Assembly: GCA_963801165.1 (NCBI GenBank)
Contig: CAWDDT010000005.1
Location: forward strand, 64,001 to 128,000
Origin: an uncultured bacterium
Lineage (GTDB): Bacteria; Actinomycetota; Acidimicrobiia; Spongiisociales; UBA5794
Direction: 5' to 3'
Length of the DNA stretch: 64,000 bases
Of the stretch, positions 16,427 through 62,555 are shown one piece after another (position 1 is the first letter of the stretch; every line of letters starts with the position of its first letter). Below the pieces are notes generated by a model. The model saw only the letters and a program-made list of their open reading frames with translations. It had not been told where the DNA came from and did not search any database. Position numbers and translations under genes: made by a program.

Positions 16427-16440
16427 CGCCTCACACTAGC

Positions 16441-46311: not shown

Positions 46312-47810
46312 TCGATCCCGGCAGCTCGAACCTCTGGTTCGTAACGGGGAGCCAACATCTTTACGGAGATGAGACACTCGCCCTCGTTGCGGACAACAGC
46401 CGCCAGATCGCAACCGCGCTGAACGAGAGCCCGCACATCCCCCTCGAGATCGCGGTCAGACCGGTGATGACGGGCAGCGATGGCATCGCCGCCCTGGTGC
46501 GGGAAGCCAACGCGGACCCGCAGTGCGCCGGCTTGATTCTCTGGATGCACACATTCTCTCCGGCCCGTATGTGGATCCGTGGTCTCGAGGAGCTCAACAA
46601 GCCGTACCTGCATCTCCACACCCAATTCGCCAGGGACCTGCCGTGGGCAACGATCGACATGGACTACATGAACGCCCATCAGTCCGCCCACGGAGACCGC
46701 GAGTTCGGCCACATCGCCAGCCGGCTCCGATCGCGACGCAAGATCGTCGCCGGCGACTGGTCGGAGACACGGGTCGCCGAGAGGATCGGTGCATGGGCAC
46801 GCGCCGCCTTTGCGGTGGCCGACGCCGCCACCGCTCGCATCGCCCGCTTCGGCGACAACATGAGAAGTGTTGCGGTTACTGAAGGTGACAAGGTCGAGTT
46901 CCAACGTGTCTTCGGATACGACGTCGAGGGCTACGGGCTCGGTGACCTCGTCGCCCACATCGAGAGGTTCGGAGACGCCGCCATCGACGCCCTCTGTGCC
47001 GAGTACGACGACACGTATGAGATGGCGGCGGAGCTGCGCCCCGGCGGCGACCGTCGCCAGTCGCTCCGGGACGCCGCAGCGATCGAGCTGGGATTGCGGT
47101 CGTTTCTCGAGGAGGGCCGGTTTGTCGCCTTCACGGACACGTTCGAGAACCTCCACGGTCTCAAGCAGCTCCCCGGTATCGCGCCACAACGCATCATGGC
47201 CGACGGCTACGGCTTCGGCGCCGAGGGCGACTGGAAGACGGCCGCGATGGTACGAGCAATGAAGGTCATGGCGCACGGTCTCGAAGGCGGCACCAGCTTC
47301 ATGGAGGACTACACGTACCACCTCGACCCGGACGGCTCGTTCGCTCTGGGTGCCCACATGCTCGAGGTCTGCCCGTCGATTGCGAAGGGAACCCCCCGCT
47401 GTGAAATCCATCCGCTTTCGATAGGCGGCAAGGAGGATCCGGTGCGCCTCGTGTTCAACGCCGCCCCCGGACCAAGCGTGAACGCCTCCGTCGTCGACCT
47501 GGGAGATCGTTTCCGTATGACAGCGGCCAGGGTGGAGGTCGTCGACCCACCCGCGGCAATGCCCAACCTGCCGGTGGCGCGATCGGTGTGGAAACCGGAG
47601 CCCGATCTTCCCCGGGCCGCCGAGGCCTGGATCCTCGCCGGCGGCTCGCATCACTCGTGTCACAGTCGTGCGCTCACGGTCGAGCACCTCGAGGACTATG
47701 CCCGTATCGTCGGCGTTGAGCTGATCACGATCAACGAGTCCACGGACATGCGAGATCTGGAGAGAGAGTTGTTGTGGAACGACGCTTCGTACAGGTTGCT
47801 GGGGAGATGA
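46308..47810 (+). CDS. araA: L-arabinose isomerase
   Basis: [51 protein letters not shown]. Confidence 0.96.
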
Positions 47811-47891
47811 CAGTGTCGGTGACACTCGCCGGCTGAGATCAGAAACGGGAGGAGGACCCGGGACGGTTAGACAGATTCAACCCAGAACATA

Positions 47892-47917
47892 ACGTTAACG
47901 TTCCCGGTAGCGATAAC
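47892..47917. promoter_or_regulatory. Tandem LacI-type operator (copy 2)
   Basis: ACGTTAACGTTCCCGGTAGCGATAAC, similar to the reverse complement of copy 1. Confidence 0.7.
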
Positions 47918-47980
47918 ATCGTGGCGCGCAGGGAAAACGCGACGAAGGCACCCGGCCAGGCTAGACATGTAGTTCACATG

Positions 47981-48006
47981 ATGTTAGCGTTCCCGTTAAC
48001 GATAAC
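47981..48006. promoter_or_regulatory. Tandem LacI-type operator (copy 3)
   Basis: ATGTTAGCGTTCCCGTTAACGATAAC, 24/26 identical to the reverse complement of copy 1. Confidence 0.8.
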
Positions 48007-48112
48007 GGAGCTTGGCTCACGAGATACGGGGCGGCTCATTCCCACATCGCGTCGAGCGCGAAGACAACGGACATTCCCGAATCGGGATGAGGAAGATGGG
48101 AAGGAAGGTCAT

Positions 48113-49192
48113 ATGACACTAAGAAGAGACAAGCGGTTTGCGTTCGTGATTCTGCTTGCCGTTTTGGCTCTGGCAGCCGCCTCCTGCGGAGGAGATAGCA
48201 CAGAGTCATCGACAACCACCACGAGCGGAAACGCGGAAACCACCACGGCTGCCCCCGACACCGGGCAAGCAGCAGGCGCCGGGTTCTGTGCGAACACCCA
48301 CATAGTGTTCTTCCCCGGCGGGCCCGAAGGTGGCCCGTTCGCCACGGTGGTATACAACGGAGCAGTGAAGGCACAAGAAGTGCTCGGCGCTGACGTCGAC
48401 TACGTATGGTCCGACTGGGATCCGGAGAAGATGCTGACCCAGTTCCGTGAAGCCGTTGCGACCCACCCCGATGGCATCGCCATCATGGGTCATCCAGGCG
48501 ACGATGCCTTTGCTCCACTCGTTGACGAGGCAGAAGCAGCCGGCATCATCGTCACCAGCCAGAACACAACTCTGCCCACGATCGAGGCGAAGTACGCCAG
48601 CAACGGCTTCGGCTATGTGGGTGCCGAGTTGTATACGGCCGGTCACTCGCTTGGCGCCGAAGCGGTTGCCGAGTTCGGCCTGGCCGCCGGCGACCGGGCC
48701 ATGGTCTGGGGTCTGCTGGCGCAAGCCGGACGTGGCGAGCGGACAAAGGGCGTCATCGACGCACTCGAGGAAGCGGGCCTCACGGTCGACTACCTCGAGA
48801 TCGACGACGCTACCAACGCCGATGCCGCAGCAGGCACCGCGACGTTCGTTGGTTATGCCTCATCACATCCGGACGTCAAGTTGGTCGTCACCGATCACGG
48901 CGCCTTGACCGCCGCGCAGCAGACCTACTTCGAGGCTGCAGGTCTCGGACCGGATGATGTGTATGGCGCCGGCTTCGACCTGAGTGCATCGACGGTGGAA
49001 TCGATCAAGGCCGGCTGGACCGACCTGGTCATCGATCAGCAGCAGTATCTGCAGGGATTCTTCCCGATTCTGCAGATATGTTTGACCAACAACTATGCGT
49101 TCACCGGTCTCCATATCGACACCGGCGCGGGCTTCGCCAACGCCGGCAACGTCGATCTGCTCGCCGACCTGGTGACACAGCAGATCAGGTAA
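48113..49192 (+). CDS. Sugar ABC transporter substrate-binding lipoprotein
   Basis: AAGGAAGG RBS; lipobox AASC and T-rich linker; periplasmic-binding fold motifs 'GFD...IDQQQYLQGF'. Confidence 0.9.
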   Translation: MTLRRDKRFAFVILLAVLALAAASCGGDSTESSTTTTSGNAETTTAAPDTGQAAGAGFCANTHIVFFPGGPEGGPFATVVYNGAVKAQEVLGADVDYVWSDWDPEKMLTQFREAVATHPDGIAIMGHPGDDAFAPLVDEAEAAGIIVTSQNTTLPTIEAKYASNGFGYVGAELYTAGHSLGAEAVAEFGLAAGDRAMVWGLLAQAGRGERTKGVIDALEEAGLTVDYLEIDDATNADAAAGTATFVGYASSHPDVKLVVTDHGALTAAQQTYFEAAGLGPDDVYGAGFDLSASTVESIKAGWTDLVIDQQQYLQGFFPILQICLTNNYAFTGLHIDTGAGFANAGNVDLLADLVTQQIR

Positions 49193-49247
49193 CAACGGCT
49201 CGGCTCGATTGCGGCCGGGACAGAAGAGCGAAAGGATGTTTGGACAG

Positions 49248-50084
49248 ATGTCTGATAAGGATGCTGGGATAGACCCGGCGACTCCGCGCCTCGAGCTGCG
49301 CGGAGTCAACAAGCAGTTTGCCGGAGTGCAAGCACTGTCCGACATCAACTTCCGTCTCGGCCGCAACGAGATCGTCGGTCTCATCGGCGACAACGGCGCC
49401 GGTAAGTCGACGATGATCAAGCACATTTGCGGCTACCACTCCCCCGACAGCGGCGAGATCTTGTTCGACGGGGTTCCGGTACACAACCTCACCGTCGAGC
49501 GCGCTCGCGAGCTCGGGGTGGCGGCCGTCTATCAGGAAAGAGCACTGGCCGACCTACAGACCCTGTGGCGCAACATCTTCATAGGTCAGGAAATCCAGAC
49601 CCGCTTTGGATTTCTGGACGTGCGCAAGATGCGACGTGAGACCCACAAACTCATGCTCGAGTCGATGGGATTCACCTCGACCGCGGTCACTCCCGAGTCG
49701 GTCGTCAAGAACTTCTCGGGTGGCGAGAAACAAGGCATCGCGATCACCCGGGCACTCTATTTCGACGCCGACATCCTCATCCTCGATGAGCCGGCCGTCG
49801 GGCTTTCGATCAAAGAGACCGACAAGCTGCTCCAGTTCATCCAGTCGATCAAGAAAGCCGGGAAAGCGGCGATCCTGATCGATCACAACATATTCCACGT
49901 CTACGAAGTCGCAGACCGGATCGTGGTGCTTGATCGAGGCAAGATTGCCGGTCGTTTCCGGCCGAAGCACCGCAACGTGATAGAGCTGACCGAGATCATG
50001 CGCGAGATAGCCGAGACAGGTCACTCGTCCGTACCGGACGACCCGTACGAAGAGTCGGTGTCTGATACGGAGGAGACGGCATGA
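49248..50084 (+). CDS. Sugar ABC transporter ATP-binding protein
   Basis: GDNGAGKST, FSGGEKQ, LILDEP; alternative start 49236. Confidence 0.93.
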   Translation: MSDKDAGIDPATPRLELRGVNKQFAGVQALSDINFRLGRNEIVGLIGDNGAGKSTMIKHICGYHSPDSGEILFDGVPVHNLTVERARELGVAAVYQERALADLQTLWRNIFIGQEIQTRFGFLDVRKMRRETHKLMLESMGFTSTAVTPESVVKNFSGGEKQGIAITRALYFDADILILDEPAVGLSIKETDKLLQFIQSIKKAGKAAILIDHNIFHVYEVADRIVVLDRGKIAGRFRPKHRNVIELTEIMREIAETGHSSVPDDPYEESVSDTEETA

Positions 50085-51115
50085 ATGGCTCGATGACCGA
50101 CGCCGACCAGGCTGCCCTCGACGAGGCGGCGTGGGGTCGCGGGGTCTCCCTCCTACACGATCCGAAGCGCTTTGCTAGCACCTATGCGGGCCAGCTCGGG
50201 ATAACCGGAGCGTTTCTGCTGCTCTGGATCGCGTTTCTGGTCACGGCTCCGGACACATTCACGCACATTGAGATCTATGCCGCGTTTGCTGCGACTATCC
50301 CTCTCTTCGGTATCGTCGCGATGCCGCTCACCATGGTGGTGACCGCGGGTGAGATCGACCTGTCCTTTCCTTCGACTTATGCGCTCGGCATGGTCGGATT
50401 CGTGCTGACATGGGAACACACGGGCAACGTCACGCTGGCGATCGCAGTCGCTCTTCTAATCGGTGCCGTCGCCGGGCTGATCAATGCCTTCGTCATCGTC
50501 CAGATCGGGGTACCGGCGCTCGTGGCTACCATCGGCACCCTCTTCTTCTTCCGGGGCCTGTCGCTGGTAGTGATCGGCGGCAGGAACATCACTCTGATAG
50601 ACACCCGGCCCTCGATTCTCTTCCGGCTGTTCGTCGGGGAGCTATACGGGATTCCGATGCAGTTCTTCTGGCTGCTGCTAGCGGCCGTGGCCACCTGGTT
50701 CCTTCTCAATCGTCACAAGTACGGCGCCGCCCTCTACGTCATCGGCGACAACGCCGAGACGGCCGAGCTCCAGGGCATAAAGACAAAACAGGTGCGTCTC
50801 ATCCTGTTCATCCTCGTTGGAGTTGCCGCCGCGTTCTCCGGGATCCTGTCGAGCCTGTTCATCGTCTCTTTCTTCCCGTCGGTCGGCGATGGTCAGCTGC
50901 TACCAGCCCTGGCTGCTGTGTTCGTTGGAGGCACGTCGGTCTTTGGCGGCAAGGGCACCGTGTGGGGAACCTTGCTCGGCGCCTTCATGATCGGAACCAT
51001 CAACGCCGGGATTGTCGCCGCCGGTCTCACCGGGTTCTACACCCAGCTCATCTACGGTGCCGTCATCGTCGTGTCGGTCTCCATCCACGCGATGGTGCAG
51101 CGACGTTTCGGGTGA
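50081..51115 (+). CDS. Sugar ABC transporter permease (RbsC type)
   Basis: GEIDLS, VPALVATIG, IGDN..AE..GI, AAVFVGGTS..GG.G. Confidence 0.93.
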   Translation: MNGSMTDADQAALDEAAWGRGVSLLHDPKRFASTYAGQLGITGAFLLLWIAFLVTAPDTFTHIEIYAAFAATIPLFGIVAMPLTMVVTAGEIDLSFPSTYALGMVGFVLTWEHTGNVTLAIAVALLIGAVAGLINAFVIVQIGVPALVATIGTLFFFRGLSLVVIGGRNITLIDTRPSILFRLFVGELYGIPMQFFWLLLAAVATWFLLNRHKYGAALYVIGDNAETAELQGIKTKQVRLILFILVGVAAAFSGILSSLFIVSFFPSVGDGQLLPALAAVFVGGTSVFGGKGTVWGTLLGAFMIGTINAGIVAAGLTGFYTQLIYGAVIVVSVSIHAMVQRRFG

Positions 51116-51116: not shown

Positions 51117-51938
51117 CTAGGCCACAACCGCCCCGGGTCCCACCAGGTGAACGGGGATCCCAAGCTTCTCCAACGAGACGACCAACTCGGCGGGCGCGGC
51201 CGCGTCCGTGATGACGGCATCGATCCGATCGGTTCGGCAGAAGGTCGCCACCGCCGCCCGGCCCCACTTGGTATGGTCGACGATCGCCACGACCCGGCGC
51301 GCCGTGGCGACCATGGATCGCTTGAGCTGGGCCTCTTCCTCCATGGAGTCGGACAGCCCCGACTCGATCGTGAAGCCGGCGGCACCGACAAACGCGGTCT
51401 GAACGTTGACCTTGCGGAACATCGCTCCACCGAGATGACCCAGCAGCGAGAGCGCCTCGGGCCGGAGACGCCCGCCCGGCATGAGTACAACGATCCCGGG
51501 ATGACTGGCAAGCTCCGCGGCGATCCTGATGCCGTTGGTGACCACGGTGAGCGCCCGCCAGCCGTCACGATCGCCCAGGTGACGAGCAACGTATAGGGCG
51601 GTCGTGCTGGCGTCGAGAGCGATGCCTTCGCCGTCTACCACCAGACCTGCGGCGAACTCGCCGATCTGTGATTTCTCCTCCCGCTGCAGCAGTTCGCGGA
51701 CGTCGAAGGCGAGCTCAGGCCGGTTGCGTTCGACCGCGATCGCCCCTCCGTGCGTCCGCACCAGGCGCCGCTCCGACTCGAGAAGAAGGAGGTCCTTGCG
51801 GATCGTCACGGCCGACACGCCGAACCGGGCTGCCAGATCCGACACCCGGGCCCGACCCTCCACCTCGACGAGGGCCGCTATCTGCTGCTGCCGCTCCTCG
51901 GCAAACACGCTATCGGATTGTCCTGCAGTTGTGGCCAT
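51117..51938 (-). CDS. DeoR/GlpR family regulator
   Basis: 'EERQQQI...VS..TIRKDL..LE...RTHGGA', DASTT, VVTN, DHTKW; start uncertain (51938 or 51983). Confidence 0.93.
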   Translation of the reverse strand: MATTAGQSDSVFAEERQQQIAALVEVEGRARVSDLAARFGVSAVTIRKDLLLLESERRLVRTHGGAIAVERNRPELAFDVRELLQREEKSQIGEFAAGLVVDGEGIALDASTTALYVARHLGDRDGWRALTVVTNGIRIAAELASHPGIVVLMPGGRLRPEALSLLGHLGGAMFRKVNVQTAFVGAAGFTIESGLSDSMEEEAQLKRSMVATARRVVAIVDHTKWGRAAVATFCRTDRIDAVITDAAAPAELVVSLEKLGIPVHLVGPGAVVA

Positions 51939-51948
51939 GTCGCGCACC

Positions 51949-53676
51949 CTAGCCGGAGGATTGTTTATCGACTTCGAGGCCATCACGCCTCCCGGCGTCG
52001 CGCAGCAGAGCCTCTTCAGCGGCCCTGGTCCAACGTCCACCGTCTAGCGCCGCCGCCACCGCAGGCACACGGTCCTGGAGCCGGGCAAGCGAGGTGAGCC
52101 CGAGGTTCGGGAGCGACGGGTAAACGATGATCTTGCCCGACGAAGTGCGAGCCTCGATGGCGGCCATGGCGTCGGCAAAGCCGGCGAATCCCGTCACCAT
52201 GTCCAACGAGATGTTGGTGTCGAGCTGGCCGCTCTCCACCTTCCGGAGGACGGCCTTCATGTCGTCGATCTTCGAGCCGCTGGTGCCGACGAAGTAGCAG
52301 CCGTTGGCGACGTACCGGTTCAAGTCGATCTCGGCCCGGGTTCCGACGGCGAAGCCGGCGAAGATGTTGATCCGGCCGTGCCTGCCCGCAAGAGCGAGTG
52401 ACCGGGCAACGAGTGCCGGCGCGGGCACCAGCAAGGCCACATAGCTGAACCCGGCTTCGAGCTGGGTGGTCGCGCTGTTCACAACCGTAAGGGCGACGTT
52501 GCGTTCGGCGGCGAGCGGCGCGGCCAGGTGCTCGAGGTGGGCGAGACGGGAATCATCGACGTCGACGGCGGCCACCGTGAGGTCCTGCCAGCCGCCCGAG
52601 ATGGAGCGAACGACATGCATCGAGCCCATCGGGCCTGCGGCGCCGATGACCGCGACCCGATCGCCGTCGCAAAGCTCGCCGTTTGCCGGAATTTCGCCGT
52701 AACCGTTCGCCGCCGAACCGGACGAGGTACCGGTCCAGCGGGTCAGGTCGTAGTGGATCCGACCCACGTCAACGGAGACCGGCCGGTCGATCAGCCGGCC
52801 GCCGGTGACGATGTCGATCACGCCGTACGGAGCCAACAGATCCTGAAGCTTCTCGATGACATTCGCTCTGGTCCCGAAGTACACGACGTCGTCGAAGGTC
52901 TGGGCGGGCAGCTCGTCGAGGCCAGCAGCTGCGGTTGCGGGCAAGGCGCCACTCTCGACCGCCGCGCCGGCGGCGAGGACAGTGGTGACCGACGCCGGTG
53001 GGCTAGCGGCCAAGAGTGTGCCAAGGCCATCGACAACGTGACCATCGTCCGCCACCACAAGAAGGCGACCACCGGCGAGAAGGTGGTTGCGTTCCTTGTA
53101 GGCATAGGCGGCTTCGACACAGGCCCAGGGCTCGACGAGCGCGATCGCGGAAGCGCTTGGTCCGTCACCAACCGGCAGCAGGAACCGCTCTCCAGTCTCG
53201 GGCTCCATGATGACCCGCTCGTCGAGCAGCACGTACTCCTGGAGCCCGCCTTCGAAGTTGTAGCCGAAAGCCGCGTTGGACACGGCGGTCGGTAGGTGCC
53301 GGTAGTCGGTCTCGACGAGCACACGCTCGCCCACCTCGTGGTGGCGCACCTCGTCGCCGACGGCGACGATCCGGCCCACCGCCTCGTGACCGGGAACTGT
53401 GGGCTTGGTGCCGGGGCAATACGAAGGGATCTCGGCCAGCACCCCTGCCGGTAGACCGGAGCGGACCTCACTCTTGCGCGGGTGGCTGGTGTAGGCGTGG
53501 AGGAGCTTGGTGTCCGAGAAACAGATCCCGCACGCCTCGACTTTGACGAGGATCTGGGTGGGTCCCACCGTCGGCACCGGCTTGGCACGGTTGTGGACGA
53601 TGTCGTTTGGACCGACGAACTGAATGGCGTGCTCGGTCTCTGGGATGTCGGGGGCACTCGCCCGCACTGTGCTCAC
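51949..53676 (-). CDS. Extended zinc-dependent MDR dehydrogenase, L-sorbose-1-phosphate reductase (SorE)-like
   Basis: CGICFSD, GHE, EPWACV catalytic-Zn motifs; GAAGPMG Rossmann motif; no structural-Zn Cys loop; 575 aa. Confidence 0.8.
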   Translation of the reverse strand: MSTVRASAPDIPETEHAIQFVGPNDIVHNRAKPVPTVGPTQILVKVEACGICFSDTKLLHAYTSHPRKSEVRSGLPAGVLAEIPSYCPGTKPTVPGHEAVGRIVAVGDEVRHHEVGERVLVETDYRHLPTAVSNAAFGYNFEGGLQEYVLLDERVIMEPETGERFLLPVGDGPSASAIALVEPWACVEAAYAYKERNHLLAGGRLLVVADDGHVVDGLGTLLAASPPASVTTVLAAGAAVESGALPATAAAGLDELPAQTFDDVVYFGTRANVIEKLQDLLAPYGVIDIVTGGRLIDRPVSVDVGRIHYDLTRWTGTSSGSAANGYGEIPANGELCDGDRVAVIGAAGPMGSMHVVRSISGGWQDLTVAAVDVDDSRLAHLEHLAAPLAAERNVALTVVNSATTQLEAGFSYVALLVPAPALVARSLALAGRHGRINIFAGFAVGTRAEIDLNRYVANGCYFVGTSGSKIDDMKAVLRKVESGQLDTNISLDMVTGFAGFADAMAAIEARTSSGKIIVYPSLPNLGLTSLARLQDRVPAVAAALDGGRWTRAAEEALLRDAGRRDGLEVDKQSSG

Positions 53677-53689
53677 ATTGAACCTCCGG

Positions 53690-55741
53690 TTAGCTGAGCA
53701 TCACCTGGCCACCGGTCACAGGTATGGCCTGGCCGGTCTCGTAGCGTTGCGCCACGACGTAGTAGATGGCCTCCATCACATCTGCCGGGGTACAGCCGCG
53801 GCCCATCGGGACCTTCGCCTCGTAGGCGTGGCGCACGTCCTCGATGGTCTTGGCCCCGGGCACTTTGCCCTCGCGCAGGTACTGGACAAAGAGCCCGCTC
53901 TCCGGGTCGGACCAAAGCGGGCCGTCGAGAAAGTTGCCCGGGCAGATCGCGTTGACCTTGATGCCGTCGCCAACCAACTCGAGTGCAAATGACTGGGTCA
54001 GGCCGATACCGCCGAACTTGCTCCCGGCGTAGGCGCTGTTGCGACTCGATCCGACCAGACCCGACTTCGAGTTGATCTCGATGATGTCGCCCCAGTAGTC
54101 GGGCTTGGTGCGGTGCTGCCGGGCGAGGATCGGGGCGCCGTTGCGGACGCACACAAAGAAACCGCGGTAGTTGACCCGCGTGACGGCATCGAACTCGGCT
54201 ACCGGGAGAGACGTAACACCGCCGGCCTTCAGGATGCCGGCATTGGAGATTATGAGATCGAAACCGCCGAAGCGACGGACGACTTCGTCGAAGCCGGCCG
54301 CCACCGACGCGTCGTCGGTCACGTCAACCGCCAGGGCCATGGCCCTTCCCATGCCGGAGCCGGCCGCAAGAGCCTTCGCCTCGGATTCCGCTTGGGCCGC
54401 GTTGAGATCCGCAAGCACCACGTGCGCCCCTTGGGCGACGAGGTCGCCGGCGATGGCCAATCCAAACCCCTGGGCGGCGCCTGTGACGACGGCGACCATG
54501 CGATCGGCGCGCCCCGGCCGGGCCGATCCCGCGGCGACCCGGCGGCGATCCTCCCCGGCTTCCCGGAGCTCGATGAACTTGCGCTCGTCCTCGGCGAGGG
54601 GTCGGATGCCGCCGAGCCCGGCGGCCAGTGTCGCCACCCGGACTGCATCGAGGTAGACGTCACGCACCACCTCGGCCCGGCCGATCGACGATCCCGCGGC
54701 GAAGAGACCCAGGTTGGGAACCACAACAACAGCGGGCTTGTAGCCGTGATCGCGTTCGAAGTCCTCGATGGCGGCTAGGACATCTGCGGCGAGATCACCG
54801 GCATCGAGGGTTCCGTCTGGACGCGGCTGGACCGGCTCGAGTATCAGCGGACATGATCCGGCGTAGACGATCTGGTCGGGGGTCAGCGGTCCCCGGGTGA
54901 GCAGCTTGTCGCCTGTAACGGGATGCTCGATCCGGGCGGCAAGAGAGCTGCCGTCGAAAGTGACTATCTCGAGTCGCGCACCGGTGGCGAGGGCGGCCCG
55001 TAGCGTGGGCCCGATGATGCGGACTGCCGCGGAGGCGACCGCGGGTTCCAGCGCCGGCTCGGCCCTACCCGTCTCCGCATTTCCGAGCCGATCACCTATG
55101 GCGCCGACGATCCTGCTGGAAATGCGGTCGATGTCGTCCGGGCTATCAGCAGCGACGATGAGCCCATGGTTCTGGAGCAGGAGTGCCACCGGCTCCGAAA
55201 CGCCGGTCCCGGCCTCGTGCTCACGCAACATCGCCCGGATCCGCCGGGCCAGGGGGAGACCGGGATTGGTGTACGGGATCCAGAGAACCTCGTCGCCGAA
55301 CAGCTCGGCGGCGAGATCTCGACCCCGGCTGCTGCAGGTCAGTGCGTTGATCGTGATCGGGTGGGTGTGCAGCACGTACCGCTGCGGGAGGAGGGCGTGG
55401 AAGAGGAACTCGCCCGAGAGGCGCCGGCCGTCACCGGGCCCGATCCCTGCCGCGACGGCCACCGCAATGGCCTGGTCGGTGTCGCCGGCGGGACCGGGCC
55501 GCTCCGGGGCATCGAGTAGGTCCAGCAGGGGCCGCAGCTCCAGACCGATGAAATCCTCGACCGTCAGGGTGGACAGCGGTGCTCCGCTCGGCTTGATGTA
55601 CAGCACACCGTCCGCCTTGACCGAGCTGTTGCCGATAACGGCCCGCGATAACTCCGGATCGAGGCCGTAACGGTGGGAAACCTCGACGATGGCAGCCAGC
55701 GCATGCGGCAGAGGGTTCTTGCTCATGGTCTGCTCGCTCAC
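53690..55741 (-). CDS. Class II aldolase/epimerase fused to a sorbitol-6-phosphate dehydrogenase (SrlD)-like SDR
   Basis: GNSSVK, KPSG, E...H, HTHP, QNHG; SDR TGAAQGFG, NAG, INSKSG, YAGSK. Confidence 0.85.
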   Translation of the reverse strand: MSEQTMSKNPLPHALAAIVEVSHRYGLDPELSRAVIGNSSVKADGVLYIKPSGAPLSTLTVEDFIGLELRPLLDLLDAPERPGPAGDTDQAIAVAVAAGIGPGDGRRLSGEFLFHALLPQRYVLHTHPITINALTCSSRGRDLAAELFGDEVLWIPYTNPGLPLARRIRAMLREHEAGTGVSEPVALLLQNHGLIVAADSPDDIDRISSRIVGAIGDRLGNAETGRAEPALEPAVASAAVRIIGPTLRAALATGARLEIVTFDGSSLAARIEHPVTGDKLLTRGPLTPDQIVYAGSCPLILEPVQPRPDGTLDAGDLAADVLAAIEDFERDHGYKPAVVVVPNLGLFAAGSSIGRAEVVRDVYLDAVRVATLAAGLGGIRPLAEDERKFIELREAGEDRRRVAAGSARPGRADRMVAVVTGAAQGFGLAIAGDLVAQGAHVVLADLNAAQAESEAKALAAGSGMGRAMALAVDVTDDASVAAGFDEVVRRFGGFDLIISNAGILKAGGVTSLPVAEFDAVTRVNYRGFFVCVRNGAPILARQHRTKPDYWGDIIEINSKSGLVGSSRNSAYAGSKFGGIGLTQSFALELVGDGIKVNAICPGNFLDGPLWSDPESGLFVQYLREGKVPGAKTIEDVRHAYEAKVPMGRGCTPADVMEAIYYVVAQRYETGQAIPVTGGQVMLS

Positions 55742-56988
55742 GCCACCACCGCCGTGCTCTGTGCGCTCGCAATCACTTGCTCCCCGAGCTCGCGGAACCA
55801 GCGGATCCGCGTCTCACCGTCGGTGAACCCGGTGGCGAGCTGCCCCCCGGCGTCGACGTAGCCGGGCCGGTCTGTCTGGCGCAGATGTTGATGGGCCGCG
55901 ATCACGCAGGTTGCTTCCCAGAATGTCGTTCGGGCCATGTCCGACGGCGCGACCCCGCCCCGGCAGGCCGGCGTCAGGGGGATCATGCGCTGGGTGTTGT
56001 GCTCGGTGCCGGCCAGCACCAGTATCCCGGCCTCACGAAGCACGGATACGTATCGATCTACCGTCTCAGGGGCGTTGCGGGCCGGAATCAGCTCGGCGCA
56101 GTAGACGCCCCGATCGAGCAGCGCCTGAGCCAGCGCCACCGGCGGGTCCTCGAAGGGGCACACCGGTTCCGCGCCGTCGGCGAGGATGGGATAACAGGGA
56201 ATCCCGTCCAGCTCCAGCACGAGCCGATAGGCGTCATCGAAAGATACCTCGGCGTCCGGTACGAAGGCGGGCCGGCCGGCCTTCATGAGCTTGGAGCGGA
56301 TGGCGTTCTGAAGAGCGATCGGGTCGGTGACGATGGTCGGGTCCGCGGCAGATCCCAGCAACGCCGCCAGCACGGTCCCGCGCTCCCCGGGATCAAATTG
56401 CGCGTACACGCTCTCCTGGAGGGCACGGGCGAGATGGCGCTCCTGGAGCGAGACCCATCCGGCGGGGACACCGCTCCTCCTCGCCACATCGCCAACGATG
56501 TTCTCGATGGTGGGCGGCTGGTCGATACCGGCCGCGAGCCCGAGATCGGTCAGCCGGGCCGCCATCGCGTTCATTCGCTTCTCACTCGAAGCGCGGATCT
56601 TGTCCAGGAGGCGTGTCGCCACCAGGCCCGGGGCCCTGTAGCCTGCCATTGCCTTGCCGCACATGTAGGTGCGGCCCGGGTTATCCGGATCGTTCACCAG
56701 AACGCCTTCGGCCCGCAGATCTTCCTGGAGGGTGATGATCTCGGTGCCGAAGAGCGGAGCGATGCGAGCGGCCGCACACGCCCGGGCGAAACGGTCATAG
56801 ATGCTGAAATCGAAGTAGTTGGAGGCTCCGACCGCGACCACGCCTTCGTCTCGGGCACGGTTCACAACGGCCTCCACGTCCTCGAACGCCGAAAAGTTGG
56901 GCGGCAGGTGCACGTGCGCATTGACGGGCCTCGGACCCGGTTCCCGGTCGATGGAGTGTGAACTATTGTCGAGGGCGGTGCGTGTCAC
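55738..56988 (-). CDS. PHP-superfamily metallohydrolase-like protein
   Basis: N-terminal NAHVH, 'GTEI', 'ELIP.RN', 'GTEHN'; translationally coupled to the aldolase-SDR gene. Confidence 0.7.
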   Translation of the reverse strand: MTRTALDNSSHSIDREPGPRPVNAHVHLPPNFSAFEDVEAVVNRARDEGVVAVGASNYFDFSIYDRFARACAAARIAPLFGTEIITLQEDLRAEGVLVNDPDNPGRTYMCGKAMAGYRAPGLVATRLLDKIRASSEKRMNAMAARLTDLGLAAGIDQPPTIENIVGDVARRSGVPAGWVSLQERHLARALQESVYAQFDPGERGTVLAALLGSAADPTIVTDPIALQNAIRSKLMKAGRPAFVPDAEVSFDDAYRLVLELDGIPCYPILADGAEPVCPFEDPPVALAQALLDRGVYCAELIPARNAPETVDRYVSVLREAGILVLAGTEHNTQRMIPLTPACRGGVAPSDMARTTFWEATCVIAAHQHLRQTDRPGYVDAGGQLATGFTDGETRIRWFRELGEQVIASAQSTAVVA

Positions 56989-57046
56989 GGGCCGCAGCTC
57001 CGGTCAGGGTCTCGCCGGCAACGTCTTCGGAGCGACACCGGCTGGC

Positions 57047-57132
57047 TTTCGACTATTTACGATTCGTTACTATTGTCTTATACTACGACATGAATTTGAC
57101 GGTCACAACCACCGAATCGAAAGAATATGAAA
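57047..57132. promoter_or_regulatory. AT-rich divergent promoter with inverted candidate DeoR sites
   Basis: TTTCGACTATTTACGATTCG (57047-57066) and CGAATCGAAAGAATATGAAA (57113-57132) are imperfect inverted copies. Confidence 0.5.
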
Positions 57133-57191
57133 TCGCTCTCCCCGACCCGGAAACGGTCCGGGAACGGCTATCGACCCCATCGAGGTGAGAA

Positions 57192-59498
57192 ATGATGGCG
57201 ACGGAGACTGCATATCGGAGCGACACCCGGCCCGGCTTTGCACCGTTCGAGGTGTCGCTGGGCTCGATTGGAGGCTTCGTCTACACGGGCGATCTCAGCT
57301 CGGAGCTCGGTGCCGGCCGCCTCACCCCCGCGTCGACACTTGATCTGCTCGACGACATGCTCGCGATCCGTGAGCTCGAAGAGATGATCGTCCGTCTCCG
57401 CTCGGGTGGCTACGACCCGCTACCCGGCTACGACTACCGGGGCCCCACCCACGTCTCCATCGGCCAGGAAGCGAGCGCCGTGGGGGCCTCGAGCGTCCTC
57501 CGCCTCGATGACCATGTCACCAGCAGCCACCGCGGACACGGCGACGCGATCGCAAAGGGTTTCTCAGCGATGCGGGCGATGACGGACGATCAGCTGCGGG
57601 CGCGAGTACCCGGCGCGAGTGCAAACAGCCATGACGACCTGCTGGCGGGTGCTCTCGAAGAACATGTGTACCGGGTAATCGCCGAGCTGTTCGGCAAGGA
57701 AGAGGGATACTGCAAGGGCCGCGGTGGGGGCATGCACATCGGTGACTTCTCCACCGGTCACCTGGGCGCCAATGCCATCGTGGGTGGCAGTGTGCCAATC
57801 GCAACGGGTGCGGCGATGGCTCTGCGTTACCAGGGCTCCGACCGCGTTGTGTGCTGCTTTGCCGGTGATGGAGCCTACGCAAACGGCGTCGTGCTCGAAT
57901 CCCTCAACTGGGCCGTTCAGGAGCAATGGACAAACCACCTGGCCGGCGACCACGCCGGCGGGTTGCCCGTCATCTTCTTCGTCCAAAACAACCATTACGG
58001 CATGACCCACCGCACCGATGACGAGGTCATGGGCGTAAGCCATCTCGCCCGCCGCGGCGCCGGCTTCGCCGAGAACAACATGCACGCCGAGACGGTGAAC
58101 GGTATGGACGTTCTGGCGGTTCGCGACGCGGTCACCCGAGCTGTGGCTCTGTGTCGTGAAGGCGAGGGTCCCGTCCTCATCGAGGCGAGCACATACCGCT
58201 ACTACGGGCACTCTCTCTCGGATCCGCGCAACGAGTATCGGACCCGGGAAGAGGAGGCTGCCTGGCGTGCAGTCGATCCAATCGAGCATCTCAAGAGACA
58301 GCTCCAAGAAACGGGCGCGGCCGACGAAGCCACGATTGCCGCGGTTGTGGCCAATGCCAGGGATCGGAACGCCCGCGCCGCTCTGCGCGCTTCACAGGCC
58401 ACCGATCCTGATCCGGCCGACGTCACCCGCTACCTGTTCACCGACACTGCCGCGGACGTGGTGCCCGAACCTGACCGGGTGGTTGCCACCCTGGCGGACC
58501 CCCCGGTGGCCGCCCGCGGCCCGGACGGCGAGATCAGCTACAAGGATGCCCTCCGCGATGCCCTGACCGAGGAGATGCTGCGCGACCGGCGCGTCATTGC
58601 CTACGGGGAGGACATAGCCGAGTATGGCGGTGCCTTCAAGCTCACCAAGGGGCTTCTGGAGACATTCGGCCGACAGCGCATCTTCAACACCCCGATCTCC
58701 GAAGCATGTATCTGCGGGACCGCGGTCGGTGCCTCGATGGTCGGGCTACGGCCGGTCGTCGAGTTGATGTACATGGATTTCGCTCTCATGGCCTCGGACC
58801 AGATCGCCAACCAGGCGGCCAAGTGGCACTACATGTCGGGGGCGCAGACCGAGGTGCCGCTGGTAATTCGCGCTTCTGTCGGCGCCGGCAAGGGCTACGG
58901 AGGCCAGCATTCCCAGTCGCTCGAGAGCGTCTTCACCCACATCCCCGGCATCTACGTCCTGTATCCGGCAACGCCTGGCGATGCCAAGGGCCTTCTCAAG
59001 AGCGCGATCAGGGACAACAACCCGGTTCTGTTTGTCGAGAGCCAGGGCCTGTATGCGACCAAGGGATTCGTCCCGGAGGGTGAGGTCCTGACGCCGATCG
59101 GCGTCGCCCGCGTCGCACGGGAGGGCTCGGACGTCACCATCGTGGCCTGGGGCCCGGCCGTCGTCGACGCCATGAAGGCAGCCGATCGCCTGGCTGCCGA
59201 GAGAAGCATCTCGGCCGAGGTCATCGACCTGCGCAGCCTCTTCCCGCTGGACATGGAAACCGTATTGAACTCGATCGCCAAGACGGGGCGCGGTGTCGTT
59301 GCCACGCAGGCGGTCCTCACCGGCAGCTTCGTCAACGAGATCGTGGCTCGCATCCAGTTCGAGGCATTCGACGAGCTAGATGCCCCCATCGCCCGCGTTG
59401 GTGCCGCTTTCGGCATCAGCCCCCAGGCCGAGGGACTCGAGCGGGCCTTCCTGCCCGACGCCACGACCATCTTCGACGCGGCTGCCGGCCTCCTGTGA
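57192..59498 (+). CDS. Fused 2-oxoacid/acetoin dehydrogenase E1 alpha+beta
   Basis: H..IGQEA, SHRGHG, ThDP motif GDG...NN, YRYYGHS.SD; beta GEDI, NTPISE, GQHSQ, DLRSL.PLD. Confidence 0.92.
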   Translation: MMATETAYRSDTRPGFAPFEVSLGSIGGFVYTGDLSSELGAGRLTPASTLDLLDDMLAIRELEEMIVRLRSGGYDPLPGYDYRGPTHVSIGQEASAVGASSVLRLDDHVTSSHRGHGDAIAKGFSAMRAMTDDQLRARVPGASANSHDDLLAGALEEHVYRVIAELFGKEEGYCKGRGGGMHIGDFSTGHLGANAIVGGSVPIATGAAMALRYQGSDRVVCCFAGDGAYANGVVLESLNWAVQEQWTNHLAGDHAGGLPVIFFVQNNHYGMTHRTDDEVMGVSHLARRGAGFAENNMHAETVNGMDVLAVRDAVTRAVALCREGEGPVLIEASTYRYYGHSLSDPRNEYRTREEEAAWRAVDPIEHLKRQLQETGAADEATIAAVVANARDRNARAALRASQATDPDPADVTRYLFTDTAADVVPEPDRVVATLADPPVAARGPDGEISYKDALRDALTEEMLRDRRVIAYGEDIAEYGGAFKLTKGLLETFGRQRIFNTPISEACICGTAVGASMVGLRPVVELMYMDFALMASDQIANQAAKWHYMSGAQTEVPLVIRASVGAGKGYGGQHSQSLESVFTHIPGIYVLYPATPGDAKGLLKSAIRDNNPVLFVESQGLYATKGFVPEGEVLTPIGVARVAREGSDVTIVAWGPAVVDAMKAADRLAAERSISAEVIDLRSLFPLDMETVLNSIAKTGRGVVATQAVLTGSFVNEIVARIQFEAFDELDAPIARVGAAFGISPQAEGLERAFLPDATTIFDAAAGLL

Positions 59499-59533
59499 GA
59501 TCCAAAGAGTTGAGCTAGAGCTGAGGAGTACCG

Positions 59534-60841
59534 ATGGCGCATCCGATCCTGATGCCGAAGCCGGGCCAGATGACCGAGGAGTGCACGATCGTCGCCTGGA
59601 ACAAGAAGCCGGGCGACCCGGTCCACCGGGGCGACATCCTCTTCGAGATCGAGACCGACAAGTCGGACATGGACGTGGAGGCGTTCGAAGAAGGTGTCCT
59701 TTTGAAGACGTACTTCGAGGAGGGAGACACGGTCCCGGTGAACAGCGTGGTGGCCTATGTCGGCGAGGCGGGCGAAGAAGTGCCCGACGTGGCCCCGTCG
59801 GCGCCCGCCGCGATCGAGCCCTCCGCCACGCCACTACCGCCGGGTCCATCGCCGGATCTCACCGGCGCCCCCGTTGCGACCGCGGCCGTCGCTCCTCCTG
59901 TGGCCGCGGTCGCCCCACCCCTGTCCACCGCAACCTCGAGTCGGGAAGATCGGCTGCGCATCAGCCCGCGTGCCAGCAGGCTCGCTGCCAGCACCGGCAT
60001 CGACCCGCGCACGATCTCCGGCACGGGCCCCGAAGGCCGCATCACCGAGCGCGATGTGCAGGCCGCACTCGACACCCGCTCCTCGGGCCAGCCGAGCGCG
60101 ACGCCGGCACCCTTTCCCGCCCACATCCCACCGGCGGTCGTCAGTGAAGACGAGGAAGGTCCCCGGGCCATGAGCCGCATGCGGCAGGTGATCGCCGAGC
60201 GGTTGACGTACTCGGCGACAACGGTTCCGCACTTCACCATGACCGTCAACGTGGATATGACCAGCGTCCTGACTCTCCGTACCGAGCTGAAAACCACCGG
60301 CACCCAGTTGAGCCTCACCGACTTCATCCTGGCAGCGACAGCGCAAACCCTCGCCGAGTTCCCGGAGGTCAACTCGCGCACCGACGGGGCTTCCGTGTGG
60401 ATCCGGAACCGGGTCCATCTCGGCCTTGCCGTTTCTGTGCCCAACGGGCTGGTCGTGCCGGTAATCCGTGACGCCGATCGGCTCTCCTTGACCGAGCTCC
60501 ATGATCGGGCAGGTGCGGTCGCGGTGGCGGCCCGGGAGGGAACCCTCTCACCAGACGACATGACCGGCAGCACCTTCACCGTCTCCAACTTGGGGATGTT
60601 CGGCGTCGACGAGTTCACCGCGATCATCAATCCCGGAGAGTCGGCCATATTGGCCGTGGCCAGCGTCGTGCCCACCGCGGTAGCGATCGGCGACGGGCTG
60701 GCTGTACGGCAGGTCATGAAGCTGACTCTCTCTGCCGATCACCGGATCATCGATGGCGAGCTGGCTGCCCGTTTTCTCAGCTCCCTCCGGCGCCGGCTCA
60801 CCGACGTCGAAGCCTTCCGTCTAGACGCACTCAACTCTTAG
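59534..60841 (+). CDS. Dihydrolipoamide acyltransferase E2
   Basis: Lipoyl EIETDK, E3-binding 'SPRA...GTGPEGRITERDV', catalytic ADHRIIDG. Confidence 0.94.
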   Translation: MAHPILMPKPGQMTEECTIVAWNKKPGDPVHRGDILFEIETDKSDMDVEAFEEGVLLKTYFEEGDTVPVNSVVAYVGEAGEEVPDVAPSAPAAIEPSATPLPPGPSPDLTGAPVATAAVAPPVAAVAPPLSTATSSREDRLRISPRASRLAASTGIDPRTISGTGPEGRITERDVQAALDTRSSGQPSATPAPFPAHIPPAVVSEDEEGPRAMSRMRQVIAERLTYSATTVPHFTMTVNVDMTSVLTLRTELKTTGTQLSLTDFILAATAQTLAEFPEVNSRTDGASVWIRNRVHLGLAVSVPNGLVVPVIRDADRLSLTELHDRAGAVAVAAREGTLSPDDMTGSTFTVSNLGMFGVDEFTAIINPGESAILAVASVVPTAVAIGDGLAVRQVMKLTLSADHRIIDGELAARFLSSLRRRLTDVEAFRLDALNS

Positions 60842-60854: not shown

Positions 60855-61178
60855 TCACTCCACCTCGCCCTCGTCGAACTCGATGTCGTAGAGCGCCGCG
60901 CCGAGTGTCTTGCCGTGGCGGTCCAGGTAGAGCGATGTGTTCACCGTGTCGCCGGGGTGCCGCCTGCACACGAACAGAACAGTGGCGATCTTGGGAAGCT
61001 CGTGCCTCGCCTCGACACCGGCGATACGCCCGTCCAGGTGCCGAGTGGCGACCTCGCTGGTGAGACGTTCGGCCAGCAACTGGTAAGCCTCCTGGTCATG
61101 GCAGGTGACCGAGATGGTGGTAAGCGGACCCTTGTCACCGGTGCGGACGTGGGCGATGTCACGGAGCAACCTGCTCAC
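60855..61178 (-). CDS. Small AtuA-related ferredoxin-like-fold protein
   Basis: 'LRDIAHVRTGDKG...SLYLDRHGKTL'; coupled to the DUF1446 gene. Confidence 0.82.
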   Translation of the reverse strand: MSRLLRDIAHVRTGDKGPLTTISVTCHDQEAYQLLAERLTSEVATRHLDGRIAGVEARHELPKIATVLFVCRRHPGDTVNTSLYLDRHGKTLGAALYDIEFDEGEVE

Positions 61179-62494
61179 ACCGGTACCCCCGGAGTGACGG
61201 AGACCTGCGGCGTGACGGCATCCCGTGCGACCAGGGTCGACACGATCCCGATCGTCTCCTCGATGCGGGTGCGCACACCGCCTCCACCGGCGGGACCGGA
61301 GGTGTATAGCGCCAGCACCTCCTCGGCCACCCGCTCGGCGGCGACCCTGTCGGTGACCCGGGCGGCGATCCGGACCCGACACCCCGGGGCGGACCACCGG
61401 TCGGTACCGAGATCGAGAACCTCCGTCTTGGCGACCTCGAGCCTCAGCTCGATACCGCCGGGGAGACGGTCCCTGACCAGCTCGCACGCCAGTCTCCCCC
61501 GTTCAACGGCCCCCCGACCCGCGTAGGAGATCTCGCCTTCGACGGTGCAGCCTGCTCGATACCCAACGCTCACCTTCAGCTGCTCGGGACGGCTGCTCCC
61601 CCGCGCCCCGTCGACTCGTACTCGATCGTCTCCCTGATCGGCGACATCGACATTGGAAAAGTCGGCGATCACATCAGGAGTTACGTACGCATGTGGGTCG
61701 GTGATCTCGTACATCAGCTGCTCGATCACCGTGTCCCTGGTGACCATCCCGCCGGTGTCGTTCAGCTTGGTGACGACCGCCGAACCGTCGGCTGCAACCT
61801 CGGCGAGTGGATACCCGACATCGGCGAGGCCGGGCACCTCCCGGAGCGGCGGGTCGGCGAAGTAGCCGCCGGAGACCTGGGGACCGCACTCGAGCAGATG
61901 ACCGATCACCGTGCCCCGAGCCATGAGATCGAAATCGCCGCCGTCCCATTGGTGCGCGAGCACGAGGGGGGCGAGAAACAGGGACGGGTCGGCGACGCGA
62001 CCGGTCAAGACCACTTGGGCGTCGGTCCGCAGTGCTCCGAGTAGATGCTCTGCACCGAGGTAGGCGTTGGCGGACACGATCTCACCGTGCGCCTCCAGGG
62101 GCAGGCCGTCCTCAATGGCGGGCGCATCGGGATCGATGAGTGTCAGCACATCGTCACCGGTCAACGCCGCTACCCGAACGGCGATGCCCAGCTCACGTGC
62201 GATCCCGGCGGCCACCCGGGCCGCCCCCTCGGGGTTGGCGGCCCCCATGTTGGAGATGAGCCGCGTCTGGCCCCTCGCCAGAACGGGGAGGAGTTGCCGC
62301 ATTCGTTTCCTCAGCAGCGGGTCGAACCCGGCGTCCGGGTCGGCGAGACGCCGCAACTGGGCATCGGCGATGGTGCGCTCAGCGAGACATTCCAGCACGA
62401 GGAAATCGAGCTCACCCCGCTCGAGCAGGTCGAGCGCCGGCGGGAGCCGATCTCCCGAAAAGCCAGCCCCACAGCCGATTCTCACGTGCGTCAC
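61175..62494 (-). CDS. Acyclic terpene utilization AtuA (DUF1446) family protein
   Basis: RIGCGAGFSGDR, ECLAERT, NMGAANP, NAYLG, GRVADP, GHLLECG.Q, EQLMYEI, GPAGGGG. Confidence 0.9.
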   Translation of the reverse strand: MTHVRIGCGAGFSGDRLPPALDLLERGELDFLVLECLAERTIADAQLRRLADPDAGFDPLLRKRMRQLLPVLARGQTRLISNMGAANPEGAARVAAGIARELGIAVRVAALTGDDVLTLIDPDAPAIEDGLPLEAHGEIVSANAYLGAEHLLGALRTDAQVVLTGRVADPSLFLAPLVLAHQWDGGDFDLMARGTVIGHLLECGPQVSGGYFADPPLREVPGLADVGYPLAEVAADGSAVVTKLNDTGGMVTRDTVIEQLMYEITDPHAYVTPDVIADFSNVDVADQGDDRVRVDGARGSSRPEQLKVSVGYRAGCTVEGEISYAGRGAVERGRLACELVRDRLPGGIELRLEVAKTEVLDLGTDRWSAPGCRVRIAARVTDRVAAERVAEEVLALYTSGPAGGGGVRTRIEETIGIVSTLVARDAVTPQVSVTPGVPV

Positions 62495-62555
62495 GCCCGC
62501 CACTGTACCTCGCCGCGGGCTACGCTCCCACCGAGTCATTGAGAGGAGAACCGCG

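Follow-up and report, generated by a model that had tools for sequence, protein, structure and literature searches.

A fused E1 and its E2 belong with a PHP/aldolase-SDR/dehydrogenase operon that may extend 6-deoxyhexose catabolism to acetyl-CoA

We analysed a stretch of 64,000 nt of contig CAWDDT010000005.1 (the window, to whose positions all plain coordinates refer) from the genome of an uncultured bacterium, here G000, and concentrated on a block of six genes within it. The block is a two-operon unit. One operon leads from a gene for a PHP-fold protein through a class II aldolase/short-chain dehydrogenase/reductase (SDR) fusion gene and a gene for a long zinc-type medium-chain dehydrogenase/reductase (MDR) to deoR; the other, divergent across a spacer, encodes the fused E1αβ and the E2 of a thiamine diphosphate (ThDP)- and lipoyl-dependent complex. 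The fused E1αβ and the E2 belong with the trio of PHP, aldolase-SDR and long MDR, together with which they are conserved in many related loci. We take the block to be the conserved core of a widespread, undescribed extension of the catabolism of 6-deoxyhexoses (rhamnose and fucose). These are major sugars of plant, algal and microbial cell walls, and the known bacterial routes for them end at lactaldehyde, lactate or propanediol; in the route considered here, acetyl-CoA would be formed, probably from the methyl end of the sugar.

Relatives of the block were collected with the PHP protein as query. Public genomes yielded 11 loci, all in metagenome-assembled genomes labelled Chloroflexota, and a metagenome search gave 328 confirmed relatives, of which the best 80 were kept; all proteins of the window were mapped onto 91 related loci (labels L###), many of them short contigs. 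The aldolase-SDR gene directly follows PHP in 51 of 58 loci with at least 1.5 kb of downstream sequence, and of 39 loci with at least 4.5 kb, 35 have the long MDR. Among the 34 loci that have a trio member and one long flank, 22 contain E1 or E2 and 32 contain either E1/E2 or rhaI/rhaB. Fourteen loci have long flanks on both sides; nine of these carry both E1 and E2, and a tenth (L005) has its E1 orthologue some 1.5 kb past the end of the retrieved sequence.

Three or more gene orders bring E1/E2 next to the trio, over a range of PHP identities from 47 to 96%. In type A (L001, L002, L006, L008, L009, L011 and others), E2←E1←(SorC-type regulator) is divergent from PHP→aldolase-SDR→MDR→second MDR of 337 aa. 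Type B is one co-directional operon comprising a rhaS-type ABC transporter, rhaI, rhaB, PHP, aldolase-SDR, MDR, E2, an E3-like flavoprotein of its own (Pyr_redox_2/Pyr_redox_dim) and the fused E1; it is complete in eight loci (L066, L067, L069, L070, L072, L081, L083, L086), and two further loci (L074, L091) end after E2. Type C, E2→PHP→aldolase-SDR→MDR, occurs in L090 and L096. Since the type B proteins are only 35–53% identical to those of the window, the association of E1/E2 with the trio appears to be old. An earlier note on this DNA had named synteny of E1/E2 with the PHP-aldolase-MDR genes as a check of its proposal, and such synteny holds in many loci and several gene orders. Some loci show irregularities: in L004 (10001–14878), PHP is followed directly by the long MDR without aldolase-SDR, and the E1 orthologue of that genome lies on another contig; the aldolase-SDR match is split in two in L006 and L007, pointing to frameshifts or errors of assembly.

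The open reading frame (ORF) map and scans with Pfam and NCBIfam models place all six genes at the coordinates in Table 1, in agreement with the gene list of the earlier note, and, as it had also stated, no kinase, phosphotransferase system (PTS) or E3 gene lies within the block. Given a GTG start, the aldolase-SDR gene overlaps PHP by 4 nt (GTGA). The gap from aldolase-SDR to MDR is 13 nt and contains GGAGG, that from E1 to E2 is 35 nt and contains GAGGAG, and that from MDR to DeoR is 10 nt, counted to an ATG at 51938 that is probably the real DeoR start. The DeoR protein has HTH_DeoR and DeoRC domains and reaches no equivalog cut-off (best AgaR, 197 vs 260 bits). An E3 is available from elsewhere in the genome, where the only lipoamide dehydrogenase above a curated cut-off is encoded on another contig (C4:667905–669269). 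Directly after this sole E3 and a SucB-type E2, contig C4 also encodes a LipB-LipA fusion of 550 aa (L110:10805–12457).

Table 1. Features of the two-operon block, in window positions
Feature	Coordinates	Strand	Basis
DeoR-family regulator (RhaR-like)	51117..51938	-	PF08220 52.7 bits + PF00455 157 bits; long ORF to 52040
575-aa NAD-dependent Zn dehydrogenase (long MDR)	51949..53676	-	ADH_N residues 38-157, ADH_zinc_N 367-481
Class II aldolase/SDR fusion, 683 aa, divergent RhaEW (PRK08324) architecture	53690..55741	-	TIGR02632, NF009050
PHP-fold metal phosphoesterase (predicted), 416 aa, first operon gene	55738..56988	-	Weak PF02811, structure model
Shared divergent control region, 203 bp, AT-rich core	56989..57191	.	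GC profile, promoter scan, inverted repeat
Fused E1αβ (ThDP-dependent), 768 aa	57192..59498	+	E1_dh, Transket_pyr, Transketolase_C
E2 dihydrolipoyl acyltransferase, 435 aa	59534..60841	+	PF00364 lipoyl, PF02817 E3-binding, PF00198 catalytic

The spacer between the operons has 54.7% GC overall but 39.6% in a 96-bp core, the window as a whole having 64%; this bears out the AT-rich divergent promoter region described before. A sigma-70-like promoter site on the + strand (57056–57084; one site in the scan against 0.1 expected) faces E1 and is bracketed by a 10-nt inverted repeat (57057–57066/57113–57122). The AT-rich core is kept in L001, L019 and L017, though the proteins are only about 70% identical.

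The block is patchily distributed. PHP was found in none of 300 genomes sampled from the phylum and none of 200 from the class, the genome of the window excepted, and the best E1 match in 60 genomes of the same order, all of which have fused E1s, is 44% identical (43% without the unpublished genomes G490 and G486). Each of the five PHP-bearing genomes that were examined contains an E1 orthologue of 73–86% identity, located in the same neighbourhood as PHP in four of them and on another contig in G002. The RpoB core of the window genome is 84% identical to that of a same-family genome, 78% to that of a same-order genome and 61–64% to those of cluster-bearing genomes; for Chloroflexota metagenome-assembled genomes in that low RpoB range, E1 identity is 81–86%. 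As E1 is thus more similar than RpoB and is absent from close kin, the whole block was probably acquired horizontally as one unit, a reading with which the patchy distribution is consistent. Its composition shows no foreign signal (GC 0.664 vs 0.641 for the genome; tetranucleotide correlation 0.976 vs a mean of 0.978 for random 9.7-kb pieces), so that transfer is argued from phylogenetic discordance and patchy distribution. All 13 contigs of the genome are alike in composition (tetranucleotide correlation above 0.998 for large contigs and no lower than 0.97 for any), and this speaks against a binning error in spite of a reported contamination of 5.6%. For the same reason, the extra DNA of this genome, which at 4.55 Mb is 1.5–2.4 times larger than nine listed same-family genomes (1.9–3.1 Mb), seems to be real accessory content. 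Among five same-family genomes, AtuA, encoded on one flank of the block, has one weak match (41%) and AraA, on the other, has none; both flanks are therefore accessory too, and no empty insertion site can be defined. The module is abundant in soil, peat and wetland metagenomes, with homologue counts of at least 1693 for PHP and at least 4026 for the long MDR.

The sugar can be approached through the partners of the module. Relatives that bear it encode an L-rhamnose isomerase (RhaI; TIGR02635, 617–645 bits, cut-off 531), a rhamnulokinase-like FGGY kinase (TIGR02627, 455–462 bits, cut-off 528) and a RhaS-like binding protein (TIGR02637, 325 bits, cut-off 342), and rhaI/rhaB occur in 35 of the 91 loci, many of these being short contigs. 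The DeoR of the window, 76% identical to that of L001, is orthologous to, and 61–66% identical with, DeoR proteins encoded next to rhaI/rhaB/ABC genes in L005, L010, L022, L023, L037 and L079. According to the main text of a study of rhamnose regulons, RhaR, a member of the DeoR family, regulates rhamnose operons in Chloroflexales (PMC3870299). We found no RhaA/RhaI and no rhaI/rhaB in the window or in its 98% complete genome, which has on contig C3 fucI (FucI, 1034 bits), an FGGY kinase gene, fucU and a LacI regulator gene. None of the five class II aldolase-domain genes of the genome reaches a FucA cut-off; they are the araD of the window, a UlaF-like epimerase gene in an ula-like operon, an aldolase-aminotransferase fusion, a second aldolase-SDR fusion and the fusion of the block. 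With rhaI/rhaB in the relatives and fucI-fucK-fucU without FucA here, the input of the pathway is most likely a 6-deoxy-ketohexose 1-phosphate, and not of the sorbose/glucitol type; the sugar is probably L-rhamnose in most relatives and L-fucose in the window genome. As L-rhamnulose 1-phosphate and L-fuculose 1-phosphate both give dihydroxyacetone phosphate (DHAP) and L-lactaldehyde, a module serving either could travel without isomerase and kinase. The sorbose/glucitol framing of the earlier note is not upheld by these partners, nor by the fusion protein, which aligns with RhaEW. A sulfoquinovose route was also considered and rejected: the isomerase passes the rhamnose isomerase cut-off, and the annotated loci contain no sulfo-sugar gene.

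RhaEW is described in the main text of Rodionova et al. 2013 (PMC3870299) as a bifunctional L-rhamnulose-1-phosphate aldolase/L-lactaldehyde dehydrogenase, which accompanies the DeoR-family RhaR in Chloroflexales and yields DHAP and L-lactate from rhamnulose 1-phosphate; some of the regulons reported there add lactate dehydrogenases leading to pyruvate. Residues 17–679 of the fusion in the block match positions 3–670 of the 676 in the RhaEW model TIGR02632. Invariant in 24 fusion sequences are K50, S52, G53, E111, H125, H127 and H192 of the aldolase domain and G421, G425, G427, D445, N524, S558, Y571 and K575 of the SDR domain. Both domains thus appear to keep their presumed catalytic residues, comprising putative Zn ligands, the Glu and the Ser-Tyr-Lys of SDRs. 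A plasmid search with the fusion returned 15 records of 26–29% identity over the full length. A butanediol/acetoin operon was rejected as a candidate, since SrlD matches far better than acetoin reductase (169 vs 108 bits).

Two other fusions of class II aldolase domains occur in the genome. The second aldolase/SDR fusion (NF006196, 913 bits, cut-off 831; L012, G000:C9:292000-311900, about 4600–17600) lies in an operon with genes for a sugar ABC transporter, an IF-2B/MtnA-like isomerase, a DeoC-family aldolase, a muconolactone-isomerase-like protein, an APH-type kinase and a split transketolase; this cluster looks like a salvage pathway of the 5-deoxyribose or methylthioribose type with an uncharacterised fusion subfamily. 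The other (L109:4778–7081; G000:C3:74777–77080) is a 767-aa fusion of a class II aldolase with a pyridoxal phosphate-dependent aminotransferase resembling glutamate-1-semialdehyde aminomutase.

The long MDR has an extra α/β domain at about residues 190–335, between ADH_N and ADH_zinc_N, and a C-terminal helical tail. C52, H97, E98, E182, G345-x2-G348-x2-G351 and D372 are invariant in 26 orthologues, so that the catalytic-zinc residues and an NAD-type Rossmann motif appear to be retained. Foldseek, run with an AF2 model (pLDDT 78.1), retrieved MDRs of the polyol-dehydrogenase type (RspB, TMt 0.74; threonine dehydrogenase, 0.71; HpsP, 0.69). Metagenomic homologues number in the thousands and bear generic names; L-sorbose-1-phosphate reductase (SorE), an automatic JGI name, is attached to only six of the 120 homologues listed. 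The basis of the 'SorE-like' label proposed earlier is membership in the MDR superfamily, together with some of these automatic names. A plasmid of Deinococcus sp. AJ005 (L127, 9138–13892) carries an operon of SDR, a 564-aa long MDR, FGGY kinase and GntR, divergent from genes for a sugar ABC transporter, a ROK protein, an AGE epimerase and mannose-6-phosphate isomerase; its MDR is 31% identical to that of the window over the full length, and the operon includes no aldolase or E1.

For the PHP protein, PF02811 scores 24.1 bits, below the gathering score of 26.4. Its AF2 model (pLDDT 88.6) has a PHP fold with an inserted domain, and the top Foldseek matches are 3e0f, 9etk (RNase AM) and 2yb1 (Cv1693), each with a probability of 1.0, TMt of 0.68–0.76 and E values between 3e-10 and 5e-8. 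H25, H27, E83, H185, E299, H330, H366 and many Arg residues are invariant. No named homologue appeared among 120 listed, no PDB chain matched by sequence, a plasmid search gave no match, and the Protein Atlas offers only unnamed or 'DNA polymerase III family' clusters. Homologues of 46–49% identity that stand alone among signalling and cell-wall genes in L077, L089 and L093 show that the family is not confined to the sugar module.

All Pfam domains of E1 (E1_dh, Transket_pyr, Transketolase_C) and of E2 score above their gathering thresholds. At the subfamily level, the β part of E1 passes the cut-off of the pyruvate dehydrogenase (PDH) E1β model (354.1 bits, cut-off 321) and keeps the HSQS histidine motif, being of the standard kind, and the α part remains below that of PDH_E1_alph_y (267.4 vs 393.85 bits), as does E2 below that of TIGR01349 (PDHac_trf_mito, 324.3 vs 445 bits). 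The α part is nearest to mitochondrial-type PDH E1α (146 bits, vs 65–78 for branched-chain 2-oxoacid dehydrogenase (BCKDH) or Bacillus PDH); no curated AcoA/AcoB E1 model matched, and plasmid proteins annotated aco are 40–45% identical. E1 thus appears to fall into a PDH-y/Aco-like group rather than with BCKDH, PDH and Aco not being told apart. In a tree of 31 β-domain sequences (seven of type A, six of type B, one long-branch row, and 17 paralogues from the window genome and related genomes), there is good support for type A and for type B, but the tree does not settle whether they are sisters, a single origin being neither shown nor excluded; we therefore rely on the insertions that they share, described below.

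A plasmid search with E1 gave 781 records, all below 60% identity and with generic names, the best at about 45%. L128, on a plasmid of Rhizobium sp. B230/85, holds the nearest plasmid relative (43%), and here again a lipoyl complex adjoins sugar-phosphate genes: positions 1531–12233 encode a glucitol/sorbitol PTS (GutM, IIC, IIB, IIA, PtsP), a SorC-type regulator, a 441-aa NAD(P)H-dependent oxidoreductase, E1α, E1β and E2. The same oxidoreductase-E1α-E1β-E2 cassette is found on an Aminobacter plasmid (L129). Elsewhere in the window genome, contig C7 encodes another fused E1αβ (703 aa; L013:8873–10984) with no E2 nearby, among genes for amidohydrolases, a bicupin, an M24 peptidase, a DAO-type oxidase and an ABC transporter.

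Our preferred reading, a tentative first choice held with somewhat less than even confidence, is that the block combines RhaEW-like aldolase cleavage with oxidation to pyruvate and release of acetyl-CoA by a private complex. Its substrates, order of steps and regulation are all what we infer from the genes. An isomerase and an FGGY kinase (here fucI-fucK-fucU on contig C3, in relatives often rhaI-rhaB in the cluster) would provide the 6-deoxy-ketohexose 1-phosphate, which the RhaEW-like aldolase domain would split into DHAP and L-lactaldehyde. The SDR domain and then the long Zn-dehydrogenase would use NAD+ to oxidise the C3 fragment first to L-lactate and then to pyruvate, from which the dedicated ThDP/lipoyl E1αβ-E2, together with the single E3 of the genome, would form acetyl-CoA; this irreversible step would pull the unfavourable NAD-linked oxidation. 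The RhaR-like DeoR would control both operons from the shared spacer.

Four points weigh against this scheme: redundancy of pyruvate oxidation, specialisation of E1, an SDR of the SrlD kind and an idle PHP protein. First, the genome also has AceE (1347 bits), a pyruvate:ferredoxin oxidoreductase (PFOR, 1788 bits) and a PDH of the x type, which has an E2 to itself, so that a further enzyme for plain pyruvate looks redundant; all three are encoded elsewhere, and the E1/E2 of the block is not one of the ordinary pyruvate dehydrogenases, in line with the earlier note. Second, the α part of E1 contains four insertions (of 7, 33–43, 12 and 3 residues) that are common to types A and B, which are otherwise only 38% identical to each other, and are absent from four paralogues in the genome and from human PDH E1α; this suggests that the fused E1 is a distinct subfamily. 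One insertion directly follows the (Y)R-x-HG motif, which we take to lie near the ThDP site, and the SorC-type regulators that precede E1 in relatives speak for a sugar phosphate as signal. Third, the fusion scores 283.8 bits with TIGR02632, half of the equivalog cut-off of 567.75 (which its type B orthologue from an operon with rhaI/rhaB, at 318.5 bits, also misses), and is 26% identical to a Sinorhizobium gene product annotated RhaEW. Its SDR part (residues 415–681) is closer to SrlD, as had been noted before, with 231.2 bits against NF009050 (cut-off 307 not reached) and 36–40% identity to genes annotated srlD; moreover, we know of no MDR that acts as a lactate dehydrogenase. Fourth, PHP, though the first gene of the operon and tightly coupled, has no assigned step.

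Several of these points are accommodated by a different scheme, which we regard as possible, if unlikely: a sor-like carbonyl shift, followed by cleavage in the manner of acetoin dehydrogenase, without decarboxylation, to acetyl-CoA and a tetrose 4-phosphate. The long MDR, as a SorE-like enzyme, would reduce the 6-deoxy-ketohexose 1-phosphate at its C2 keto group, giving a deoxy-hexitol phosphate, which the SrlD-like SDR would re-oxidise next to the methyl group to a 1-deoxy-ketohexose 6-phosphate, a methyl α-hydroxyketone like acetoin or 1-deoxyxylulose 5-phosphate (DXP). The class II aldolase-fold domain would act as an epimerase or aldolase, and E1-E2-E3 would then perform the cleavage. This would make use of the SrlD-like SDR (231–240 bits), of a long MDR that some JGI pipelines name L-sorbose-1-phosphate reductase, and of the E1 with its four shared insertions and own lineage, in a genome that has three other pyruvate-oxidising systems. 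It would also fit the SorC-family regulators in front of E1 in relatives, the Deinococcus plasmid operon in which SDR, long MDR and FGGY kinase occur without aldolase and E1, and the Rhizobium plasmid E1 beside a glucitol PTS and a SorC-type regulator. However, a literature search found no biochemical precedent for the cleavage, the 'SorE' names are automatic annotations, and PHP would be without a role here too. The alignment of the fusion with RhaEW runs from end to end; in operons with rhaI and rhaB, the fusion is the sole candidate for an aldolase, and it keeps the Glu typical of aldolases, where the AraD epimerase has Asp. Both this scheme and the aldolase-pyruvate route would derive the acetyl group from C5–C6 and differ in whether C4 leaves as CO2. 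It is accordingly conceivable, though we rather doubt it, that E1αβ/E2(/E3) is not a PDH but a sugar-specific ThDP/lipoyl enzyme that frees acetyl-CoA without CO2 from a 1-deoxy-ketohexose 6-phosphate, with PHP as a new sugar-phosphate phosphoesterase of the same route. The remaining probability goes to schemes we have not thought of.

The earlier note had itself proposed that a polyol or ordinary ketose, possibly taken up through the adjacent ABC transporter and phosphorylated by the adjacent ribulokinase, is processed by the cluster. This appears very improbable to us, even though the genes are physical neighbours in the window and an SrlD-like SDR and an MDR are at hand. The neighbouring genes (42790–51115) encode a LacI-type regulator on the - strand, AraB (a ribulokinase, 595 bits, cut-off 428), AraD (by Pfam only), AraA (by NCBIfam and Pfam), a Peripla_BP_4 binding protein, a 291-aa single-domain ABC ATPase and a permease. 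They are a separate, self-contained L-arabinose operon, with its own transporter and divergent regulator, which converges on deoR with a gap of 1 nt. In none of the 91 related loci does araBDA stand beside the module, where rhaI/rhaB and RhaS-type transporters are found instead, and the absence of AraA from the five same-family genomes marks the ara genes as accessory, with no sign of a link. What remains viable of that proposal is the idea that a ketose phosphate is processed up to a ThDP-dependent step giving an acyl-CoA, with a sugar that is not of the sorbose/glucitol type. On the other side of the block, an AtuA-family protein (PF07287, 465 bits) and a short ORF, presumably its usual partner DUF4387 by resemblance, are encoded on the - strand (60855–62539) and converge on the end of E2.

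Barely credible, finally, is that E1αβ/E2 is an ordinary housekeeping or branched-chain 2-oxoacid dehydrogenase placed here by chance, a reading in keeping with the PDH E1β score of 354 against 321 bits and with the frequency of fused E1s in the order, but contradicted by synteny, as E1/E2 adjoin the trio in three gene orders or more over the whole range of PHP identities, one of them a single operon that includes an E3-like gene, and further opposed by the probable transfer of E1 along with the trio, the conserved spacer and the presence of housekeeping enzymes elsewhere in the genome.

The earlier note knew of no characterised pathway with this combination of genes, and our literature search found none either. 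The RhaEW/RhaR rhamnose pathway, as set out in the main text of PMC3870299, covers part of it, with PHP, the long MDR and E1/E2 lying outside; the terms 'PHP' and 'pyruvate dehydrogenase' do not occur in that main text, and its supplements (Table S1, Figure S6) might list Chloroflexi neighbours. With the module, deoxyhexose catabolism would gain a private E1-E2-E3 complex and three enzyme families that are uncharacterised. Read conservatively, it would be an operon that takes deoxyhexoses to acetyl-CoA, with a new fused E1 subfamily, a new MDR domain layout and an orphan PHP phosphoesterase. If the carbonyl shift were true, it would mean a new carbon-carbon cleavage chemistry for a lipoyl-dependent complex, hence a new route of rhamnose/fucose breakdown and the first complex of the 2-oxoacid dehydrogenase type to act on a sugar phosphate. 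In either case, there are functional leads for the large PRK08324 'bifunctional aldolase/SDR' family, in which, to our knowledge, only RhaEW is characterised.

Among the closest known systems, the L-sorbose system of enterobacteria, SorC/SorD (SrlD-like)/SorE, resembles the module in its SrlD-like SDR, in an MDR in a presumed ketose-phosphate context and in the SorC-family regulators of the relatives. It differs in that the module has no PTS, fuses its SDR to an aldolase-fold domain, has an MDR of 575 aa with an extra domain and is associated with deoxyhexoses. The COG0613 phosphoesterases Cv1693 (a 3',5'-bisphosphonucleotide 3'-phosphatase, 2yb1), RNase AM (9etk, 7ug9) and BAD_1165 (3e0f) share with the PHP protein, by Foldseek, a distorted barrel into which a helical domain is inserted, and the window protein likewise has the HxH motif and further invariant His/Glu/Asp; in contrast, it is only 9–16% identical to them, about 130 residues longer and encoded in a sugar operon. 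PDH with an α2β2-type E1 and AcoABCL correspond to the window complex in the domains of E1, the domain set of E2 and the HSQS motif of the β part, the α part being nearest to the mitochondrial type. Here, however, E1α and E1β are fused, the four α insertions are common only to other E1s of sugar clusters, no E3 is encoded in the window, and E1/E2 lie beside a deoxy-sugar operon and probably move with it. Another is RhaEW (YuxG/Caur_2283). The fusion of the module departs from it in score (284 vs 568 bits), in identity (26% to the Sinorhizobium gene product), in an SDR nearer to SrlD and in its company, being preceded by PHP, followed by the long MDR and accompanied by E1/E2(/E3), in a window genome without rhaI/rhaB. 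Yet both have the same three-part architecture of about 680 aa, align from end to end and keep the Zn-His/Glu and SDR residues, and in relatives of the window the fusion adjoins rhaI, rhaB, a RhaS-type transporter and a DeoR regulator.

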